DNA from: a virus
Taxonomy: Duplodnaviria; Heunggongvirae; Uroviricota; Caudoviricetes
DNA: 39,397 nucleotides
Direction: 5' to 3' (one strand)
IMG/VR virus record: IMGVR_UViG_3300044638_005715
Span: 1-39,397 of that record
The first letter of the stretch is position 1. The number at the start of each line of letters is the position of its first letter. Under the pieces are notes generated by a model. The model saw only the letters and a program-made list of their open reading frames with translations. It made no database searches and was not told the DNA's origin. Shown piece by piece: positions 9,946-28,741 of the stretch. A program made the position numbers and the translations under genes.

Positions 9946-10415
9946 AAACATATATTTTAAATGGTTTTATGTATCCATTAGATAAGTATTTTCCAAACAG
10001 TGATAAGGTGAAAAATATATGGAGATGGAATTGGAATAAGAAAAAAGCTATTGAATTTGCCGATACTATAAAGGGGCCCTGTCAATTAATTGGGTTTTCA
10101 GATGGGGCAACAGCCGCCCTAGAAGTTGCTAATAACTCTATATATGTACAAAGAGTATATTGTCATTCATGTATGTATAGATCACACGAAATGCTGCGTA
10201 GATTTGAAGTGGTGTTTTTTAGAACCAACGGCGATACAACACCGACTTATGATGGAACAGAGAAAAGGTTCCTATCATATAAAGTAGCTGGGTATCCATG
10301 TGAAATTATGGACCTAGATCCAGTTACAATAAGTAATAAAAATATAGTAGATAGAATTAGTGGTTTATTCGGCCATCAATTCGAAAATGCTATGCCCTAT
10401 ATTAAAATTACTTAG
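9942..10415 (+). CDS. minimal alpha/beta-hydrolase-like protein
   Basis: Nucleophile elbow LIGFSDGA (GxSxG); candidate Asp in TNGD; C-terminal GH. Confidence 0.6.
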   Translation: MKTYILNGFMYPLDKYFPNSDKVKNIWRWNWNKKKAIEFADTIKGPCQLIGFSDGATAALEVANNSIYVQRVYCHSCMYRSHEMLRRFEVVFFRTNGDTTPTYDGTEKRFLSYKVAGYPCEIMDLDPVTISNKNIVDRISGLFGHQFENAMPYIKIT

Positions 10416-10791
10416 GTTTCCAAGCAATAGCGTGCCCAGAATCTACCATTAGTTTATTTAATGAGTTGCCATTCTCATCATAAATAACAGCAAGCCACCT
10501 ACCAAATGAATCCTCTTTATCCTTAAATGTATTAACATATAATTCTTTTGCATTACTAATAAGCTCAGAAAAATATGCATTAGCGACCTCATATGCCTCC
10601 TTTGTTTTTTTTCTGTTCTCAGGAGTATTTATACCATAAAGTCTATATCTTTCTTCATCAAATGACCTTTTCCCCTGATCACAAACCAATATTATGGTAT
10701 CTCCATCTATTATGCGTGATATAGATATGACACGGCGAAAATATAAGAATTTTTTAATATCTTCACCAGTTACATTTTCAAATTCTACCAT
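10408..10791 (-). CDS. SNase/thermonuclease-family nuclease
   Basis: RIIDGDT, RLYGINTPE, DSFGRWLA, LNKLMVDSGHA. Confidence 0.9.
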   Translation of the reverse strand: MVEFENVTGEDIKKFLYFRRVISISRIIDGDTIILVCDQGKRSFDEERYRLYGINTPENRKKTKEAYEVANAYFSELISNAKELYVNTFKDKEDSFGRWLAVIYDENGNSLNKLMVDSGHAIAWKPK

Positions 10792-10815
10792 ATGTAATTC
10801 TCTATATATTTATAA

Positions 10816-11670
10816 TTACCAATTACGGCATGACCAATATCTTGCCTTCCATTTTGGACCAGGATTTGTGTCACATTTATGACGGGCCCTAAATAATTTC
10901 CTTCTTTCTGGATCGTTTTTCTTTATGGTCATATTTGGATCGCCAAACCGTACAATAACAATCTTACCTTTATCATTTTTAGTATAAACAGCAAATTTTT
11001 TAGGACCACTAGGAGTTCTAAATGGTTTATTTAATGTTACTTTACGACCTTGATATTCGGCCGCCATTTCCGTTTCCATATCATCTTCTTCATATGGTTC
11101 ATTATACATCATATAATCATAAGCAGACTCAATATGAACATCAGCTTTAGATATATTATCTTGAACCCATCCCTCTAATTCCTCATCATCTTCAAGTGCA
11201 TTATAAATAGCCATGGCCTTTTCTGCTATTTTCTTTAATTGGGCCTTTGCCATGCCACCTTCACCGCCATCAGATGATTGTGCCATTTTCCATGCTTTTG
11301 GATCTGGTCGATCTTTATCCCCAGGTTTAGCTGGCCTATATTTTTTTCCTTCTCTCTTTTTCTTCTTCCTAATATTTTCCCATAGGCTAGCCGAACTAAT
11401 AGTTTCAGGATCAACACCTTCATCTACATAATCTTCATCTGGCGGAATATAAAAGTTACTAACCCTTAATTCTTCTTCCCAACCACATTCATTGAATTCC
11501 AAAATAGCAGATGCTGAATCTTTAATATCTAAATCAATGGTAGCCTTAGACATACATACTGCTACTCTTTGCTTATTGTCTGGATAGTCCTTCTTCATCA
11601 TTTCGTCGCCCATGCAGCGACCCATAAAACTGGAACTATCTTCTCCCTTACGCTTACTTGGAATTGGCAT
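10816..11670 (-). CDS. modular phage protein (284 aa) of four short conserved modules
   Basis: PIPS..FMGRCM..YPDNKQRVAVC; LWENIRKK..KPGDKDRP; EGGMAKAQL..LEGWVQDNI; AEYQGRKVTLNKPF..RARHKC..KARYWSC (recalled from aquatic T4-like/large phages). Confidence 0.75.
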   Translation of the reverse strand: MPIPSKRKGEDSSSFMGRCMGDEMMKKDYPDNKQRVAVCMSKATIDLDIKDSASAILEFNECGWEEELRVSNFYIPPDEDYVDEGVDPETISSASLWENIRKKKKREGKKYRPAKPGDKDRPDPKAWKMAQSSDGGEGGMAKAQLKKIAEKAMAIYNALEDDEELEGWVQDNISKADVHIESAYDYMMYNEPYEEDDMETEMAAEYQGRKVTLNKPFRTPSGPKKFAVYTKNDKGKIVIVRFGDPNMTIKKNDPERRKLFRARHKCDTNPGPKWKARYWSCRNW

Positions 11671-11897
11671 TATTTGCGGCCCTCTTTAATATTTTCTTCC
11701 CACCAAAAATTAATACGGCAATGCTCTTTATCCCAAAAGAACACATAATCAATAAACATTCTAGTCATCATCCAATATATAGAATGATATTGGCATCTAT
11801 ATGAACGACTAGATAGCATTTCATCAAAATCGCCACCCAGTAATGTATTTAATGTTCTAGATGCAGCAATTTTAAAATGTTGAAATTGTGTTAGCAT
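11670..11897 (-). CDS. conserved small phage protein
   Basis: LNTLLGGDFDEMLSSRSYR...FIDYVFFWDKEHC pattern (recurrent phage hypothetical, recalled). Confidence 0.7.
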   Translation of the reverse strand: MLTQFQHFKIAASRTLNTLLGGDFDEMLSSRSYRCQYHSIYWMMTRMFIDYVFFWDKEHCRINFWWEENIKEGRK

Positions 11898-11898
11898 A

Positions 11899-12423
11899 TT
11901 ACTTACTATATAATTCGGAAAATTTTTCTATTGGCATATATCCATTATACTCAACAAATTCACCAGACTTATTATAAAATTGAAAGACGGGAACTGAACC
12001 AGTATATTCTATTGGTTTAATTTTCCATCCCTTCTTAACTAATAATGGTTGTACTTGTAATTTCCATACATCACAATGCTTACAGTCATCCCTAGTAAGC
12101 ATTTTAATCTCATCTTTAATTATGGTATTATCCTGTATTTTATCATTGATATCCATTTCATGAATTATACCATCACCACCACAATTTTCGCATTTCACAC
12201 AGATAGTTCCGTCACCAACCCTTCCAACACCACACTTCCCAGGTGGGCTATTACAGTCACGACATTTATCACCAACACTTTGTTTAACACCATCTATAAT
12301 CTCATCCTCATTTAAAGCTGTATATTTTGCCATTAATGCAACACTATTAGCATACTCCGTATATGAAATAGGTGAATTACAGCCGACAAAAAGGATAAAA
12401 AATATAGTAAATATTCTTAACAT
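11899..12423 (-). CDS. predicted lipoprotein with Zn-finger-like CxxC pairs and C-terminal thioredoxin/glutaredoxin-like domain
   Basis: GGAG SD before ATG 12423; lipobox-like FVGC; CRDC..GRVGDG..CENCGGDG; DCKHCDVWK...SVPVF. Confidence 0.7.
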   Translation of the reverse strand: MLRIFTIFFILFVGCNSPISYTEYANSVALMAKYTALNEDEIIDGVKQSVGDKCRDCNSPPGKCGVGRVGDGTICVKCENCGGDGIIHEMDINDKIQDNTIIKDEIKMLTRDDCKHCDVWKLQVQPLLVKKGWKIKPIEYTGSVPVFQFYNKSGEFVEYNGYMPIEKFSELYSK

Positions 12424-12436
12424 TATAAACTCCGTT

Positions 12437-12652
12437 TTATTTATTACATCCACAATCACATTGATTAATAATACAATTACAGGGTGAATTAATATCTAGT
12501 TTGAAACATGCCGGGCAATCTACACATTCGCACACGGCCCCATTAACAACAGAAGCAGAACTTGAACGCTCACTTGTGCCAATACAGTATGAACCTACTG
12601 ATAACACAACAAACAAACCTACTAAAAGTAAACAACTATTTAAATTCGTCAT
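12437..12652 (-). CDS. small secreted or membrane-anchored Cys-rich protein
   Basis: AAGGAG SD; hydrophobic N-terminus; CECVDCPAC...CNC...CDCGC. Confidence 0.75.
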   Translation of the reverse strand: MTNLNSCLLLVGLFVVLSVGSYCIGTSERSSSASVVNGAVCECVDCPACFKLDINSPCNCIINQCDCGCNK

Positions 12653-12661
12653 TATATCTCC

Positions 12662-14836
12662 TTAACCTAATAAACCAGTGCCCCAATTATTTATTTTTTG
12701 CATCTTCCAACCATTTAGGCCAGCAAATACACTACAGTCTCTATTTCTAATATCAGACCAACGGGCCCAAAATGAACCCTCTGGAATCATAATATTGCCA
12801 GTATTAGGATTGACTATCCCTAATTTAATCCATCTATTTTTTTTGTGTTTTGGAACATATTGGGCACTATCTAAAATATCACGGTTCCCAGATATCCATC
12901 TTGGGCCCCAACTATTCTGAACTAATACTAGGGGCTCTTTATATATCCTTTTAATAATTTCCCTATCATCGGCCGCAATATATGCCATAGCATGGGCCCA
13001 ACTACCTTGTCTTTGTGCCACACCATGCTCTGATCGCTGTTTGGCAAACCCTTCTGAACCACATGTATGAATAAATCGGCCCTGACCTAATGAATCACGT
13101 ATTCCCTCAAATGTATTAGTTCTTGCAGCAGTCCTAATAAGATTTTTACCTAATAGTGCCTGTATGGAATCTGGCGGTTGTGAAGCCCCCCATTTCCCTG
13201 CTAAAGCCGCATCATATTTGGTTAGATCTATATTTGATCCTTCTAGAGGGCCCCTTATTACAGCACCTGCTTTCTGCATACTAACATTAGCAGATGCCTC
13301 ACAGTACCAACCGTCACCACCATGGCCCCTAAACCAATAAAATACCTCAGTTGATAATGCACCATTTCTTATTCCATCAACAGATATTTTGGGCAATGTT
13401 TCTAACATGCCAGTTTGTTCATCTGTCTGACCTGATACAATTTCACCAATCATTGTGCCCAATATAGCATTCTTATTGGAGTGCGACACACAATTAAAAA
13501 TACCAAAACCATTACATATAAAATTATGATCATATTCTACTTCAATACAATAAACATAATTATTTTCTGGATCGACTATGTTAATTTCTTTTATCTTAAC
13601 TTCTCGACCATAACATTGTGATAAATTTGATATAGTTGTATATTCAGTTTTAGGAAGCATAAACTCTATAGAAGTTGCTATATTAGCAAAATCTAACATT
13701 AAATCCTTATTAACCGAAACGGCACATGACATATATTTGGATTTATGACCGTCTCCATCAAACCATCCTTTCAATAAAGCTATTTTATTAGATTGATTCA
13801 TTATAAAACATTCTTTACATAATCTTTTGGTATATGTATTACCATTAACTAAATATTTAAAGAATGATGCAATTATAGATGAAGAAACTCTTACATAAAT
13901 AACAGTTGGTTTAGATGGAACAGTATAAATATGTGGTTCTATACCAAAAATATCTATAAAATATTCTCTCAGTTTATCAGCAATTTCTGTCTCATGACTA
14001 CCTAAATTAAATGTAATTCTATTGAATTCTGATTTATCACCATCTATACCTCCCTCAGCAGCATATAATCCAATAATCCATGCTAATCTTTCATTACATT
14101 TAATATATCTATTTACCTGAATAGATGAATTTTTTCCCCTTATTTTATTTTCATCAACAGGGACTATCCTGTTTAGAGCAAAATCTATATCATCTGTTAT
14201 TGCTTCTCTATTATAGTAATGATATAAATCAAATATAAATTCTTCAGAATACAGAATGGGGGGTAAATAAACTTTGTCACCAATAGATAATTCAGATATT
14301 GGTTTACCCTCTAAGGTATGTGGATTAATAATATATTTATGATCCGGTGTAGATGCTATTTTATTTAAATAACCCTCTACAGAAATTTCTACCATTTTTT
14401 TATTATATGGCTTTTTAAAAACATTTGTAACCATTCGCTTGTTACCAGTGGCACTAATAACGTATTCGCCGACTTTAATGTCTTTAATTTGTTTTTCAGA
14501 ACCATCAGACATTCTTACTAAATCACTTCCATTTTGGCAATCGCCCCTACCCTGAGCAGGCCCCGGTAACGCAGTAGGAACCAATTCCATTATATGAACA
14601 AACGGGATTACTAATTGACTAGCAAACGCATTAAACCAATTGAATGCATATGCAGCATCTTCTACCTGTGTATATCCACCAGTTTGCTTAGATAATTCTG
14701 TAAATTTGTCTCGTTCTTCCGGGTCTAAGTATGTGCCCGCAAAACCATCGGTATACTTTCTGATGATATCATCTACAGGAAGTGCAAGAGAAGGATCTTG
14801 GTCCCATACTTTAGAATGCTTAGGATATATTTTCAT
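12662..14836 (-). CDS. papain-like (C1/clan CA) cysteine peptidase precursor containing an intein
   Basis: Spliced extein reads PAQGRGD|CVSHS (Gln oxyanion + catalytic Cys), WAHAM (His), VQNSWG (Asn); start placed at the ATGA overlap 14836 (track start 14851). Confidence 0.85.
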   Translation of the reverse strand: MKIYPKHSKVWDQDPSLALPVDDIIRKYTDGFAGTYLDPEERDKFTELSKQTGGYTQVEDAAYAFNWFNAFASQLVIPFVHIMELVPTALPGPAQGRGDCQNGSDLVRMSDGSEKQIKDIKVGEYVISATGNKRMVTNVFKKPYNKKMVEISVEGYLNKIASTPDHKYIINPHTLEGKPISELSIGDKVYLPPILYSEEFIFDLYHYYNREAITDDIDFALNRIVPVDENKIRGKNSSIQVNRYIKCNERLAWIIGLYAAEGGIDGDKSEFNRITFNLGSHETEIADKLREYFIDIFGIEPHIYTVPSKPTVIYVRVSSSIIASFFKYLVNGNTYTKRLCKECFIMNQSNKIALLKGWFDGDGHKSKYMSCAVSVNKDLMLDFANIATSIEFMLPKTEYTTISNLSQCYGREVKIKEINIVDPENNYVYCIEVEYDHNFICNGFGIFNCVSHSNKNAILGTMIGEIVSGQTDEQTGMLETLPKISVDGIRNGALSTEVFYWFRGHGGDGWYCEASANVSMQKAGAVIRGPLEGSNIDLTKYDAALAGKWGASQPPDSIQALLGKNLIRTAARTNTFEGIRDSLGQGRFIHTCGSEGFAKQRSEHGVAQRQGSWAHAMAYIAADDREIIKRIYKEPLVLVQNSWGPRWISGNRDILDSAQYVPKHKKNRWIKLGIVNPNTGNIMIPEGSFWARWSDIRNRDCSVFAGLNGWKMQKINNWGTGLLG
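13493..14539 (-). mobile_element. intein (349 aa) with LAGLIDADG homing endonuclease
   Basis: Starts CQNGSDLVRMSDGSEKQIKDIKVGE; block B TPDH; IIGLYAAEG and LLKGWFDGDG; block F VYCIEV; ends IFN followed by Cys+1. Confidence 0.93.
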
Positions 14837-15291
14837 TGCTGAAATGCCCAACCAATAGATTTATATAAGGAAATTAATTTACTCTTATTATCATCATTTA
14901 TTTTTATAGGGTATTCACCTATATATGTATTAAATAATTTGTCCATTTCCTCACTAGCACCAGGAAATAAGCCTTTAAGATCTCCGTGTTTCCTAATATA
15001 CATTGAGATCAAATCTTCATTGTATGATGGCAATTTATCAGACACCATATCAATAGTAGATAGTTCAAAAGTATCGGCCGCAGCAAACCACATAGACGCC
15101 ATTTTATCTTTTTGATCTTTAGTGGCCTTACTTGATTTAACTATATTAGCTAAATTACCAACCCTAGACATTTCATCGGGTGATAATTGAACAGTGCTCA
15201 CATTACTTTGTATATTAAGTGATTTTAAATTAGGGACACTAATTACAAATAATCCGGCAACTATAAGGAGAATAGGAATTATATTTTTCAT
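14833..15291 (-). CDS. secreted or membrane-anchored protein (152 aa)
   Basis: MKNIIPILLIVAGLFVIS signal-like N-terminus; coupled to both neighbours by ATGA overlaps. Confidence 0.75.
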   Translation of the reverse strand: MKNIIPILLIVAGLFVISVPNLKSLNIQSNVSTVQLSPDEMSRVGNLANIVKSSKATKDQKDKMASMWFAAADTFELSTIDMVSDKLPSYNEDLISMYIRKHGDLKGLFPGASEEMDKLFNTYIGEYPIKINDDNKSKLISLYKSIGWAFQQ

Positions 15292-15569
15292 TTCTTGTCT
15301 ACTATAGTCTCTGAGGTAACTGGTGGATTAATAATTCCATTTATGACATTTGTTAAGTCCTTATATATTTTTTCATCCTTATACCTTTCTCTCATATTAA
15401 TTAGTATTTCTAAGTCACTCATAATGCCATTCCCATTATTATTTAAAGGGGCCGCATTACGATCACATAACTTATTAAATATAGTAAATAATTGATCTTT
15501 AAAGAAAAACCCGGCCCCGCCAGATCCCAGTAATAAAAGTCCTAAAAGATTATCTTGAATAAATTGCAT
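15288..15569 (-). CDS. small membrane protein, possible holin-like
   Basis: N-terminal hydrophobic LLGLLLLGSGGAGFFF; operon context. Confidence 0.6.
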   Translation of the reverse strand: MQFIQDNLLGLLLLGSGGAGFFFKDQLFTIFNKLCDRNAAPLNNNGNGIMSDLEILINMRERYKDEKIYKDLTNVINGIINPPVTSETIVDKK

Positions 15570-15570
15570 G

Positions 15571-15867
15571 TTAGTTACCGTATATAATTGGTTTAATAGT
15601 TTTTAATATAGCGTTTTTTGCTAATTTCCTAGTTATGATTTGGGGAAATGGTAAATCAAGCTTAGGTATGATAATATCAATAACGGCCTCAATTGCCTTC
15701 ATTAAAGTATCTGGATTAATAGAGGGGTTCTTATCAAATATATCTTTAATTACACCTAATATCTGTATTAGAAGTGTACCCTTATCCTTCTCATTAATAT
15801 GAGGTATGATACTGTCATATATATCTTGACTTAACTTGTCTTCATCAAAATTATATTGCGATTCCAT
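15571..15867 (-). CDS. hypothetical helical protein, first gene of the - strand operon
   Basis: GGAG SD upstream; 98-aa ORF. Confidence 0.7.
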   Translation of the reverse strand: MESQYNFDEDKLSQDIYDSIIPHINEKDKGTLLIQILGVIKDIFDKNPSINPDTLMKAIEAVIDIIIPKLDLPFPQIITRKLAKNAILKTIKPIIYGN

Positions 15868-15934: not shown

Positions 15935-15978
15935 TATGTGAGTTTGTGTGAATCCTTTTAAAAAATTGTGGTATTACT

Positions 15979-16182
15979 ATGATAAATAATCATATTGATT
16001 ACAAAAATGTAAAAAATAAGGTCAATAATCAGGTCCGTGGTCAGGTCAAGATTCAGGTCTTGGCTCAGGTCTATAATCAGGTCGATAATCAGGTCCATGG
16101 TCAGGTCAGGGTTCAGGTCAAGATTCAGGTCTCCATTCAGGTCGAAAATCATGTCCATCATACCAAGGGCAATAATGAATAA
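15979..16182 (+). CDS. xxQV-repeat minigene B1 (67 aa)
   Basis: ...NQVRGQVKIQVLAQVYNQV...HHTKGNNE. Confidence 0.7.
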   Translation: MINNHIDYKNVKNKVNNQVRGQVKIQVLAQVYNQVDNQVHGQVRVQVKIQVSIQVENHVHHTKGNNE

Positions 16183-16351
16183 AAAGAGCGTTATTAAGCA
16201 GGTCCGTGGTCAGGTCGATAATCAGGTCATGTATCAGGTCAATTATCAGGTCTATAATCCGGTCTGGAATCAGGTCTGGGATTATATCAGTGATAAGGTC
16301 AGGGATCAGGTCTGGGATCAGGTCCATCATACTAAGGGCGATAATGAGTAA
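16175..16351 (+). CDS. xxQV-repeat minigene B2 (58 aa)
   Basis: AAGGG SD-like + ATG; MNKKSVIKQVRGQV...HHTKGDNE. Confidence 0.7.
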   Translation: MNKKSVIKQVRGQVDNQVMYQVNYQVYNPVWNQVWDYISDKVRDQVWDQVHHTKGDNE

Positions 16352-16520
16352 AAAGAGCGTTATTAAGCAGGTCCGTGGTCAGGTCAGGAAGCAGGTCATG
16401 CAGCAGGTCGATAATCAGGTCAATAATCAGGTCTGGAATCAGGTCTGGGATTATATCAGTGATAAGGTCTGGGATCAGGTCTGGGATCATGTCTATCATA
16501 CTAAGGGCGATAATGAGTAA
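16344..16520 (+). CDS. xxQV-repeat minigene B3 (58 aa)
   Basis: MSKKSVIKQVRGQV...YHTKGDNE; near-duplicate of B2. Confidence 0.7.
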   Translation: MSKKSVIKQVRGQVRKQVMQQVDNQVNNQVWNQVWDYISDKVWDQVWDHVYHTKGDNE

Positions 16521-16797
16521 AGAGAGCTTGAATTCACGGGTCAAGGATCATTTCAGGTGTCATGTCGGGGATCAGGTCGGGGATCAGGTCAGGGATCAAG
16601 TCTGGGATCAGGTCTGGAATCAGGTCCGTGGTCAGGTCAAGATTCAGGTCTGGGCCCAGGTCAGGAATCAAATCCAGGATCAGGTCTATAATCATGTCGA
16701 TAATCAGGTCTATAATCAGGTCCGTAGTCAGGTCGGTAATCAGGTCCGTGGTCAGGTCGGGGATCAGGTCCATCATACCAAGGGCGATAATGAGTAA
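16513..16797 (+). CDS. xxQV-repeat minigene B4 (94 aa)
   Basis: MSKESLNSRV...GDQVGDQVRDQVWDQV...HHTKGDNE. Confidence 0.7.
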   Translation: MSKESLNSRVKDHFRCHVGDQVGDQVRDQVWDQVWNQVRGQVKIQVWAQVRNQIQDQVYNHVDNQVYNQVRSQVGNQVRGQVGDQVHHTKGDNE

Positions 16798-16990
16798 AAA
16801 GAGCGTTATTAAGCAGGTCCGTGGTCAGGTCGGGAATCAGGTCATGTATTATGTCAATTATCAGGTCCGTTGTCAGGTCGGTAATCAAGTCAGGAGTCAG
16901 GTCTATAATCAGTTCGAGAATCAGGTCATGCAGCAGGTCAGTGATCAGGTCTATAATCATGTCTATCATACCAAGGGCGATAATGAGTAA
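16790..16990 (+). CDS. xxQV-repeat minigene B5 (66 aa)
   Basis: MSKKSVIKQVRGQV...YHTKGDNE. Confidence 0.7.
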   Translation: MSKKSVIKQVRGQVGNQVMYYVNYQVRCQVGNQVRSQVYNQFENQVMQQVSDQVYNHVYHTKGDNE

Positions 16991-17168
16991 GAATATCACG
17001 GTTCAGATCCAGGATCAAGTCTGGGATCAGGTCGGGGATCAGGTCTGGTATCAAGTCTCCAATCATGTAAGAAGAATTGATGTCGAGAATCAGATCCGGT
17101 ATAAAGTCTGGGATAAAATCAAGAATAATATAGGAAATAAGGTTATGAATTTACTAATTTCTCAATAA
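16983..17168 (+). CDS. xxQV-repeat minigene B6 (61 aa, diverged C-terminus)
   Basis: MSKNITVQIQDQVWDQVGDQV... Confidence 0.65.
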   Translation: MSKNITVQIQDQVWDQVGDQVWYQVSNHVRRIDVENQIRYKVWDKIKNNIGNKVMNLLISQ

Positions 17169-26464: not shown

Positions 26465-27310
26465 GTGATTACCCAATATCCAGATGGCCAACTTGATATT
26501 TCATTAACCAATGAAGAATTAGATATGCATGGAATTGTGCATTCTATACGTTCATATAATGATTTATTTGAATTAGCATCTATCGTAGATGTATTAAAGC
26601 ATAATAATAGGGGCCCCATACCACTATATTGTCCATACTTATTTGGTCAAAGATCTGATCGGCGATTTGATAAGAAGGCATCTTTTGGATTTAAACTTAT
26701 TGCTGATTTTATTAATAAATTAGGATTTAGTAGTATTGAATTATTTGATCCTCATAGTTCTACTATTCCTTCCCTTCTTAATAGATGTAATGTAAATGAG
26801 TCTATGTGGGAGGAAACTGTTATGCAGGCAGTCGAAATGACAAAGACTGCAAATGGTACTGATGAACTATATGTAGTATCTCCAGATGCCGGTGCATATA
26901 AGAAACTATTTATGCTGTGCAATAAATTTAATATGCCCCTTGTTGCTGCAAATAAGTTTAGGGATTTGAAAGGTAATATAGATTTAAATTTTTCTGTTCC
27001 AAAAGCAGATATTAAAGATAAACACTTCATTATTATTGATGATATATGTGAGTATGGTGGAACATTTAAACGACTTACGAATGAATTGATCGGTAGTATG
27101 GGAGCCAAATCAGTATCATTATATGTTTCGCATTTTTCGGGAGGCGGAAACGTATCATATAGTGATGAGGAAAAACTTTCTTTTGTTATTGATGGTATAT
27201 TAGAAATAGTGACTAGGATTTATACTACCAATAGTATAAGTCAAAACATGTCTAAGTTGAATAGAAATGTTTTTAACGTAATTGATTTACCAATGTGGAG
27301 TATAAACTAA
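26465..27310 (+). CDS. Prs-family pyrophosphokinase (probable NARP1 Adps-type)
   Basis: YPDGQ, PYLFGQRSDRRF, VVSPDAGA, IIDDICEYGGTF; GTG start; abuts the Nampt-like gene. Confidence 0.85.
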   Translation: MITQYPDGQLDISLTNEELDMHGIVHSIRSYNDLFELASIVDVLKHNNRGPIPLYCPYLFGQRSDRRFDKKASFGFKLIADFINKLGFSSIELFDPHSSTIPSLLNRCNVNESMWEETVMQAVEMTKTANGTDELYVVSPDAGAYKKLFMLCNKFNMPLVAANKFRDLKGNIDLNFSVPKADIKDKHFIIIDDICEYGGTFKRLTNELIGSMGAKSVSLYVSHFSGGGNVSYSDEEKLSFVIDGILEIVTRIYTTNSISQNMSKLNRNVFNVIDLPMWSIN

Positions 27311-28741
27311 ATGACAACTAAAAATAATCCATTAATCGCTCTTGACGTTTATAAAATGGGGCACATGTCGCAATTTGCACCTGGAACAAGCAAGGTGTAT
27401 GTCAATTATTGTAATAGATCTGATAGATATTTTAATGAATATGTATTTTTTGGTCTTCAGTATTACATGCAAGAATATTTATCTAAAAAATTAACCCCAG
27501 AAATGGGTGAAGAATTTTTAGAATATAGAAGGATGATTGTTGGACCACCAGAAGAAGGTGTTGTAGATAAGATTAGGTCTTTATGCAAAATTGGATATTT
27601 TCCAATTAAAATTAAAGCACTTCCAGAAGGATCTATAATCACAAAAAATATTCCTGCATTTACAATAACAGAAACCATTCCTGGATACCATTGGACTGTT
27701 GGAATGGTAGAGTCCTTACTTTTAAAGGTTTGGTATCCATCTGTTGTTGCTACAGCATCTAGAAAATATAGGTCTTTAGTAAATGAAATATTTACTGAAT
27801 CTGTTGATGAAGAAGATTATTTCTTGAAAGATTTTATGGTTCATGATTTTGGATATAGATCAGATTCTTCGGAAGAAAGTGCTGCTATTAGTGGGGTTGC
27901 TCACCTACTAAACTTTGTTGGAAGTGATACTGTTCCAGCATTGCCAATGGCAATTAAGAATTATTATGCAGATAAAAGTAAGCCTATTATGCTCTCTGTT
28001 CCAGCATCAGAACATTCTGTAGCTTGTTCTTTTGGAAAGGAGGGTGAATTTGAATATTTTGAAAATATGCTTAATATTTATAAGGATGGAATAGTTAGTA
28101 TAGTTTCAGACCAATATGATGTTTATAAAGTATTTAATGAATATCTACCAAGGTTGAAAAATAAGATTGTTGCTAGAAATGGTAAAACTGTTTGCCGTCC
28201 AGATAGTGGCGATCAGGAAATTATTATTTGCGGAGATGCTAATTCAGAAAAGGGATCGCCACAAGAACTTGGATGTATTAGAATGTTAGATAGGACATTC
28301 GGACATAAGGTTAATTCCAAGGGATATAAAGTATTACATCCCTCCGTTGGTCTAATATATGGAGATGGATTATACTATGATAAGTATGAAAAAATTCAAA
28401 GACGATTAATGTCTATGGGCTATTCTGCACAAAATTTAGTAATTGGTGTTGGAGGAATTTTAAGAAATTGGACAAGAGATACTACCGGTGTTGCTATTAA
28501 GGCTACTTATGTAGAAAAGAACGGAAATCAAGTAGAAATATATAAAGATCCAATAACTGATCCAGGGAAAAAATCACATAAGGGATTATTAATGATATAT
28601 CAAGAAGATGGTATATTTAAAGTAAAAGATAGGTGTTCATGGGAAGAAGAATCACAAGGTCTACTTCAAACTGTATTTGAGAATGGAAAACTAATTAGAG
28701 AAACAACATTGTCAGAAATTAGGAATAGATTATATGCATGA
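27311..28741 (+). CDS. nicotinamide phosphoribosyltransferase family protein (NadV/Nampt; probable NARP1 Namat-type)
   Basis: DVYKMGH, FFGLQY, HDFGYR, VPASEHS, SIVSDQYD, RPDSGD, LIYGDG, DPITDPGKKS.KG. Confidence 0.92.
   Translation: MTTKNNPLIALDVYKMGHMSQFAPGTSKVYVNYCNRSDRYFNEYVFFGLQYYMQEYLSKKLTPEMGEEFLEYRRMIVGPPEEGVVDKIRSLCKIGYFPIKIKALPEGSIITKNIPAFTITETIPGYHWTVGMVESLLLKVWYPSVVATASRKYRSLVNEIFTESVDEEDYFLKDFMVHDFGYRSDSSEESAAISGVAHLLNFVGSDTVPALPMAIKNYYADKSKPIMLSVPASEHSVACSFGKEGEFEYFENMLNIYKDGIVSIVSDQYDVYKVFNEYLPRLKNKIVARNGKTVCRPDSGDQEIIICGDANSEKGSPQELGCIRMLDRTFGHKVNSKGYKVLHPSVGLIYGDGLYYDKYEKIQRRLMSMGYSAQNLVIGVGGILRNWTRDTTGVAIKATYVEKNGNQVEIYKDPITDPGKKSHKGLLMIYQEDGIFKVKDRCSWEEESQGLLQTVFENGKLIRETTLSEIRNRLYA

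Follow-up and report, generated by a model that had tools for sequence, protein, structure and literature searches.

An intein directly before the putative catalytic cysteine of a papain-fold peptidase from an uncultured freshwater phage

We describe an intein that interrupts a peptidase-like gene of an uncultured freshwater phage, exactly in front of the cysteine that is the putative nucleophile of the encoded enzyme. The gene lies in a window of 39,397 nucleotides, the whole stretch of DNA analyzed here, which forms the first 39 kb of IMG/VR virus record IMGVR_UViG_3300044638_005715 (137218 bases, 92% complete). Our explanation, which we hold with good confidence, is that a mobile class-1 LAGLIDADG intein invaded the catalytic-cysteine codon of a phage C1-like peptidase, that it would splice spontaneously and that its homing endonuclease is decaying. 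Behind it stand direct observations of the insert and its exact borders, an empty site in a related phage, a papain fold, conserved Cys, His, Asn and Gln residues, and a sporadic distribution of the intein.

The reading frame 12662..14851, on the minus strand like all other parts of the gene, is uninterrupted, and the ATG at 14836 is the start that agrees with those of homologs. The precursor gene is thus 12662..14836 and encodes 724 amino acids (aa) plus a stop codon. Its first part, the N-extein (14540..14836), comprises residues 1-99, is pro-region-like, ends with Gln95-Gly-Arg-Gly-Asp99 and aligns with residues 1-99 of the closest relative, P0002. The intein (13493..14539; precursor residues 100-448) is 349 aa long and runs from Cys1 to the terminal Asn. 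It is followed by a C-extein of 276 aa (12665..13492), which homologs and fold indicate to be the putative catalytic core of a C1-like peptidase. Removing the intein joins the exteins into a host protein of 375 aa, in which Cys+1 (13490..13492) becomes Cys100. The first-pass annotation, a model's reading of the letters and open frames, had placed the intein borders exactly: the same junction is seen, residue by residue and uninterrupted, in intein-free homologs. Insertion of a class-1 LAGLIDADG intein at the Asp99/Cys100 junction is confirmed.

The empty site is best seen in P0002. This protein is 375 aa long, the same length as the joined exteins, is 73% identical to them, and carries an uninterrupted G-D-C-V-S-H-S. 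It is encoded on contigs of 94 kb and 156 kb that share the gene order of the window, namely a RuvB-like gene, several small genes, the peptidase, and then genes of 75, 184 and 284 aa. Since these syntenic contigs lack the insert, P0002 represents an intein-free allele carried at this locus by a related phage. In L001 the empty site lies at about 10290-10310. The G-D-C is also contiguous in hundreds of homologs of 331-385 aa, so the intein-free alleles for which the first-pass annotation had suggested searching do exist. A word-index search with the C-extein, limited to shorter proteins, returned 508 homologs, most of them 331-385 aa long; the word-index search gave 34 long forms. Among 1.84 billion cluster representatives there were 572 matches, with about 46 long forms among the 150 matches listed. 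Nearly all members of the host family come from uncultured phages. In a set of 50,697 GenBank phage records, from which the record of the window itself may be hidden, tblastn of the C-extein gave no match.

The identity of the insert is clear from both sequence and structure. Two Pfam models match the middle of the precursor: Intein_splicing (PF14890) at 48-51 bits (cut-off 35.8) and LAGLIDADG_3 (PF14528) at 38-41 bits (cut-off 22.5). An intein profile finds PI-PkoII (1e-20) and PI-SceI (5e-14) in the PDB. An AlphaFold2 model of the intein, with a predicted local distance difference test score (pLDDT) of 90.4 overall and above 90 in the splicing domain, is matched by Foldseek to TliVMA, PI-PkoII, PI-SceI and PhoVMA. 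The intein motifs comprise Cys1, the T-P-D-H of block B (14339..14350), two LAGLIDADG helices that carry acidic residues, and blocks F and G (13493..13558) with Cys at block F position 4, Asp-His and a Phe-Asn end, after which comes the Cys of the C-extein. In 22 related inteins Cys1, T-x-x-H, the Asp-His of block F and the terminal Asn show little or no variation; T64 and H67 of block B and C331, V334, F340 and N349 of blocks F and G are strictly invariant. The GC content of the intein is 27% (14% at third codon positions); that of the exteins is 40-41% (27-29%), and that of the window as a whole 32%.

The Phe in place of a penultimate His, already remarked on in the first-pass annotation, is real, as a comparison of blocks F and G across some 60 inteins at this site confirms. 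His is usual here rather than obligatory, and the relatives have H, N, S, K or F. In phage inteins generally, the penultimate His is poorly conserved and other residues are common (PMC5050341). Class-3 inteins are defined by a position 1 without a nucleophile and by a triplet of Trp (B12), Cys (F4) and Thr (G5) (PMC2807308). The Cys in block F does not place the intein in that class, because its position 1 is occupied by Cys and its triplet is Tyr-Cys-Ile; we therefore rejected a class-3 assignment.

From a predicted structure and conserved residues, we take the host to be a divergent cysteine peptidase of the C1 fold, with the intein directly before its putative nucleophile. Searches of the exteins against Pfam, PHROGs and PDB sequences gave no match, and a profile of 119 homologs searched against PDB sequences gave only a non-significant match (E 1.1), which was to a papain-family enzyme, 3ioq, aligned at N-S-W-G. 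AlphaFold2, run on P0002 with the 119-homolog alignment, produced a two-lobed papain-type model with a pLDDT of 95.9 and a predicted template modeling score (pTM) of 0.93. The top Foldseek matches in the PDB belong to the papain family only, with xylellain first (E 3e-8), followed by procathepsins K, B and L, Lpg2622 and falcipain. VIA-align superposes the model on xylellain (3ois) with Z 20.5 over 232 residues at a root-mean-square deviation of 2.9, and on about 50 further C1 entries, proenzymes included, with Z 16-19. Nearly all matching AFDB clusters bear the name Peptidase C1A. In the Atlas the neighbors are 'hypothetical' viral clusters, and PF00112 members make up 14-82% of some of them. 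The alignment starts at model residue ~71 with mature papain-type chains and at ~20 with proenzymes, so the N-terminal part resembles the end of a propeptide; model residues ~20-70 overlay the propeptides of C1 proenzymes.

The residues expected of such an enzyme are conserved across the 119 homologs. Cys100, Gly160 and His266 (spliced numbering, as for all host residues) are invariant, and Gln95, Asn292, Ser293 and Trp294 are at least 90% conserved. In the P0002 model, Cys100 is the first residue of the long helix 100-119, which it caps, and the putative catalytic His266, within S-W-A-H-A-M (12986..13003), lies on strand 260-274. The putative catalytic Asn292 and Trp294 belong to Q-N-S-W-G (12905..12919). 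The first-pass annotation had aligned the joined exteins with the papain motif, expected a clan CA fold and equated Cys+1 with the protease nucleophile. The fold is borne out by the P0002 model, in which the invariant Cys starts the central helix, and the Cys, His, Asn and Gln are indeed conserved. The motif alignment was off in its spacing: Gln95 stands 5 residues before the Cys (Q-x-x-G-x-C), as against 6 in papain. Fold and helix-capping position support Cys100 as the nucleophile, although both it and the triad remain putative.

The homing endonuclease appears to be in decay, as the first-pass annotation had suspected from its shortness past the second LAGLIDADG motif. Both LAGLIDADG helices retain their terminal acidic residue. 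The first (14048..14086; model helix 150-162) ends with Glu162, which like A161 is invariant in the 22 related inteins; the second (13745..13783; model helix 249-263) has invariant G258, G262 and G264, with D261 and the terminal Asp263 at least 90% conserved. Alignment with the nearest full-size relatives (P0122, P0270, P0269, P0288 and P0224; 378-379 aa) reveals an in-frame deletion of 29 residues directly after A-N-I-A-T-S-I (13667..13687). In the AlphaFold2 model, the alpha-beta-beta-alpha-beta-beta-alpha fold is complete in the first half only. The second half ends after helix 278-289, and residues 293-307 form a disordered linker (pLDDT <50) where its second beta-hairpin would be expected. 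The endonuclease has thus lost one beta-hairpin of its DNA-binding saddle and can probably no longer home. The deleted form is no assembly error, because a variant of the same length with four substitutions, P0268, comes from another sample; a protein identical to that of the window, P0295, is also known. The same intein lineage also includes endonuclease-free mini-inteins of 133 aa (P0290, P0232 and P0254). Together, the truncated endonuclease and the mini-inteins fit two stages of the homing cycle, degeneration and deletion (PMC8966425).

The peptidase family turns out to be a hot spot for inteins. Insertion points were mapped by local domain hits and junction motifs, as global hmmalign misplaced the inserts. 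There are about six, clustered on the Cys, His and Asn motifs: in front of Cys100, in front of the conserved Cys in G-D-G-W-x-C, immediately after His266, two residues beyond His266, immediately after Asn292, and after N-S-W-G. The first of these is occupied in about 60 proteins by full-size or mini-inteins, so the further inteins at this site that the first-pass annotation had proposed looking for are plentiful. They are of two types, with either Cys, as in the window, or Asp at block F position 4. Most inteins near the His and Asn motifs belong to a third type, with a G-N ending, and five family members contain two inteins in one protein.

On a tree of 139 host proteins, from which about 10 sequences with mis-parsed intein junctions were left out, the window protein is sister to the intein-free P0002 with a support of 99. 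The presence of an intein at the Cys site requires at least 25 changes on this tree, compared with a mean of 41 for shuffled labels. The inteins of P0122 and P0270 share 71% identity with that of the window, while the corresponding host proteins are only 62% identical. This sporadic presence, the mismatch between intein and host identities and the occupation of other sites make up the pattern of a mobile, optional element. Judged by these sequence comparisons, the intein behaves like an optional selfish insert rather than a built-in redox switch.

In the mechanism that we propose, the intein would fold once translated and its Cys1 would form a thioester. The N-extein would then be transferred to Cys+1, and the terminal Asn would cyclize, joining Asp99 to Cys100 and thereby creating the active site. 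Splicing would be spontaneous and unregulated. The precursor would be inactive, because it is the joining of Asp99 to Cys100 that would create the active site. That the enzyme is inactive until spliced is a reasonable inference, yet it applies to almost any active-site intein.

Some observations weigh against this explanation. No member of the host family (0 of 119) matches PF00112 at E<=1, so the predicted peptidase activity is read from fold and conserved residues only. The penultimate Phe and the block F Cys are unusual and could slow splicing or render it conditional. Three cysteines of the intein region are positioned where disulfides are conceivable.

The gene neighborhood raises the question of where the peptidase acts. 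The gene sits in a minus-strand block of small genes, several of which encode N-terminal membrane anchors. A similar arrangement recurs in unrelated phages (window 10408-15867, minus strand; L009:7386-9262; L011:7090-9544; L013:4187-7207). The protein encoded upstream of the peptidase is membrane-anchored or secreted and has a similar A-I-A/G-W-A motif at its C-terminus; at most two genes downstream lies the gene of a zinc-ribbon protein (CxxC...G-D-G-T...CxxCxGxG), either secreted or a lipoprotein. In the window the conserved neighbors are the membrane protein at 14833-15291 and the lipoprotein at 11899-12459. This combination of membrane protein, peptidase and zinc ribbon may be an envelope or lysis module. 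As the peptidase gene lies within a conserved set of envelope-directed proteins, our best guess, of low confidence, is that the peptidase acts at the host envelope. Export of the peptidase by the Tat or Sec route was considered and rejected: the twin-arginine motif is absent from all 294 members, and an N-terminal anchor is present in just two, both of them distant.

A stronger version of this idea is that the host protein is a papain-fold envelope hydrolase, for example a lysis enzyme acting on peptidoglycan peptides or envelope lipoproteins, and that the intein interrupts a lysis function. We regard this as unlikely, though it is the alternative that fares best. The flanking membrane-anchored and lipoprotein genes, recurrent in distant phages, speak for it, as do, in L011, a gene for PG_binding_1 and Peptidase_M10 domains, two genes upstream of the peptidase, and, in L013 and L015, secreted trypsin-like genes downstream of the peptidase. 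Common endolysin families are also missing: PF00959 (Phage_lysozyme), PF01510 (Amidase_2), PF01464 (SLT), PF13539 (Peptidase_M15_4) and PF01551 (Peptidase_M23) have no match in the 137218-base genome. The same is true of a sixth family, PF00182 (Glyco_hydro_19), but that result is uninformative because it has no match in the control genomes either, and a search of six families covers little ground. Moreover, the structural neighbors of the host protein are all true C1 endopeptidases, not NlpC/P60 or CHAP enzymes, the family lacks signal peptides apart from the two anchors just mentioned, and no neighboring gene carries a PHROG lysis annotation.

The next alternative, which we consider improbable, is conditional splicing, in which the intein has been kept as a delay or gate on the peptidase. 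A reversible disulfide among Cys1, the block F Cys and Cys+1, for example, or else zinc, would keep the enzyme inactive until late in infection or until it reaches a reducing compartment. The first-pass annotation had proposed redox-gated activation on the basis of these cysteines and of a thioredoxin-like protein encoded two genes downstream, and this proposal found no support. The neighbor (11899..12459, minus strand) is predicted to be a lipoprotein; it combines a DnaJ-like CxxC zinc ribbon with a thioredoxin-like region, also with CxxC, at its C-terminus. Its hydrophobic N-terminus ends in V-G-C, a lipoprotein-type signal, and it is therefore predicted to lie outside the cytoplasm; the peptidase has no signal. 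The C-K-H-C region scores 16.1 bits against Thioredoxin_2, below the cut-off of 27, over 30 residues only. An ortholog, 53% identical, occupies the same place beside the intein-free allele in L001-L003, and in the distant phages L009, L011 and L013 only the zinc-ribbon part accompanies the peptidase; the thioredoxin-like part is lineage-specific.

In favor of conditional splicing, three cysteines are at or near the splice center, and the one in block F is kept throughout its intein type. Redox-sensitive inteins are documented elsewhere, for example DnaBi1 of Mycobacterium smegmatis (PMC6195587), and non-His penultimate residues alter the rate of splicing in phage inteins (PMC5050341). However, the block F Cys characterizes the lineage of just one Cys-site type out of two and comes without the class-3 Trp and Thr, and the other type has Asp at this position. 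P0002 and most of the host family do without any intein, and the decay of the endonuclease and the mini-inteins match a selfish life cycle. Slightly less probable still is the specific proposal that the intein is a timer, with thiol- or redox-dependent splicing through Cys1, the block F Cys and Cys+1 holding back an envelope-directed peptidase until late infection. If true, it would be a natural protease zymogen switch inside a conserved envelope or lysis gene module.

Least probable of all is a dead allele that has lost splicing and leaves this phage with no active peptidase: the penultimate His is absent, and the 29-aa deletion could upset folding, given that some inteins need the endonuclease scaffold (PMC8966425), but the frame of 724 codons is unbroken and is found again in other samples with no more than four substitutions, every essential splice residue is present and invariant among relatives, the splicing domain is modeled with a pLDDT >90, and F-N, N-N, S-N and K-N endings occur among related inteins of several lineages.

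Other features of the genome were noted along the way. The gene for the small subunit of ribonucleotide reductase (PF00268, 164 bits; G000:C1 ~61140-63070, L008:1165-3096) is split by a second intein, which belongs to the D-T-E-V-L-T / G-N type and sits at the E-S-E / R-H iron-ligand motif. DNA polymerase III alpha is encoded in two pieces (G000:C1 ~79160-82130, L005:217-3182), a 'fractured gene' with a split intein. Its first piece ends in the N-terminal intein half, and the second opens with the C-terminal half, which has an H-N end followed by Ser. Between them lies a free-standing gene of 282 aa with a sub-threshold match to a TnsA-like endonuclease (24.5 bits, cut-off 26.5). Within the window, 15958-17168 consists of GC-rich (46%) short repeats with several frames open on both strands (translations of the D-L-I-P-D-L or Q-V-R-G-Q-V type). 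At 26465-28741, a gene resembling that of ribose-phosphate pyrophosphokinase adjoins one for nicotinamide phosphoribosyltransferase (PHROG 619 and 448; PF04095), which looks like a salvage or restoring pair for nicotinamide adenine dinucleotide (NAD).

The case in the window is an ordinary one for an intein, and its wider value lies in the host family. A phage family that has hundreds of metagenomic members but no name in Pfam or PHROGs has now been given a fold and a likely chemistry, and the positions of the inteins mark its active site independently. Since the residue that completes splicing is also the putative nucleophile of the enzyme, protease activity would report splicing directly. 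The family is well suited to tests of whether inteins are purely selfish or able to regulate. With full-size, damaged and mini-inteins at one site, it also provides a good natural series for the homing cycle.

Most of the intein hosts known so far are ATPases or act in DNA metabolism. The view expressed in the first-pass annotation, that proteases are rare among them, agrees with the literature searchable here, within which we found no description of an intein in a papain-like or C1 peptidase. The protease genes known to be interrupted in this way are those of ClpP from the Chlamydomonas eugametos chloroplast and archaeal LonB (PMC4760082, where LonB is entered as a P-loop NTPase). These are serine or ATP-dependent proteases, and neither has a papain fold with Cys+1 as nucleophile.

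On the host side, the closest known systems are C1 peptidases such as xylellain of Xylella fastidiosa (3ois) and the procathepsins. The phage family shares with them the two-lobe fold, the Cys at the start of a helix, the His on a strand, the Asn-Ser-Trp-Gly after the next strand, the Gln before the Cys and a propeptide-like N-terminal segment. It differs in its low identity to them (9-15%), in the failure of all 119 members to match PF00112 and in having the Gln one residue nearer the Cys.

On the intein side, the class-3 inteins of mycobacteriophage Bethlehem DnaB and M. smegmatis DnaBi1 share the block F Cys with the window intein (PMC2807308), but they have no nucleophile at position 1 and carry Trp-Cys-Thr, in contrast to its Cys1 and Tyr-Cys-Ile. 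The VMA-type class-1 inteins (TliVMA, 7qsu/7qss; PhoVMA, 7qst; PI-PkoII, 2cw7; PI-SceI, 1vde) have, like the window intein, a Hint domain with a nested two-motif LAGLIDADG endonuclease, and share Cys1, T-x-x-H, the terminal Asn and Cys+1, with Foldseek E values of 4e-16 to 4e-13, although they are only 13-15% identical to the window intein. Their hosts are ATPases or polymerases rather than a cysteine peptidase, and the penultimate Phe and block F Cys set the window intein apart. The endonuclease of PhoVMA is degenerate too (PMC8966425), but by loss of its acidic residues, whereas the window intein has kept these residues and lost a 29-aa beta-hairpin.

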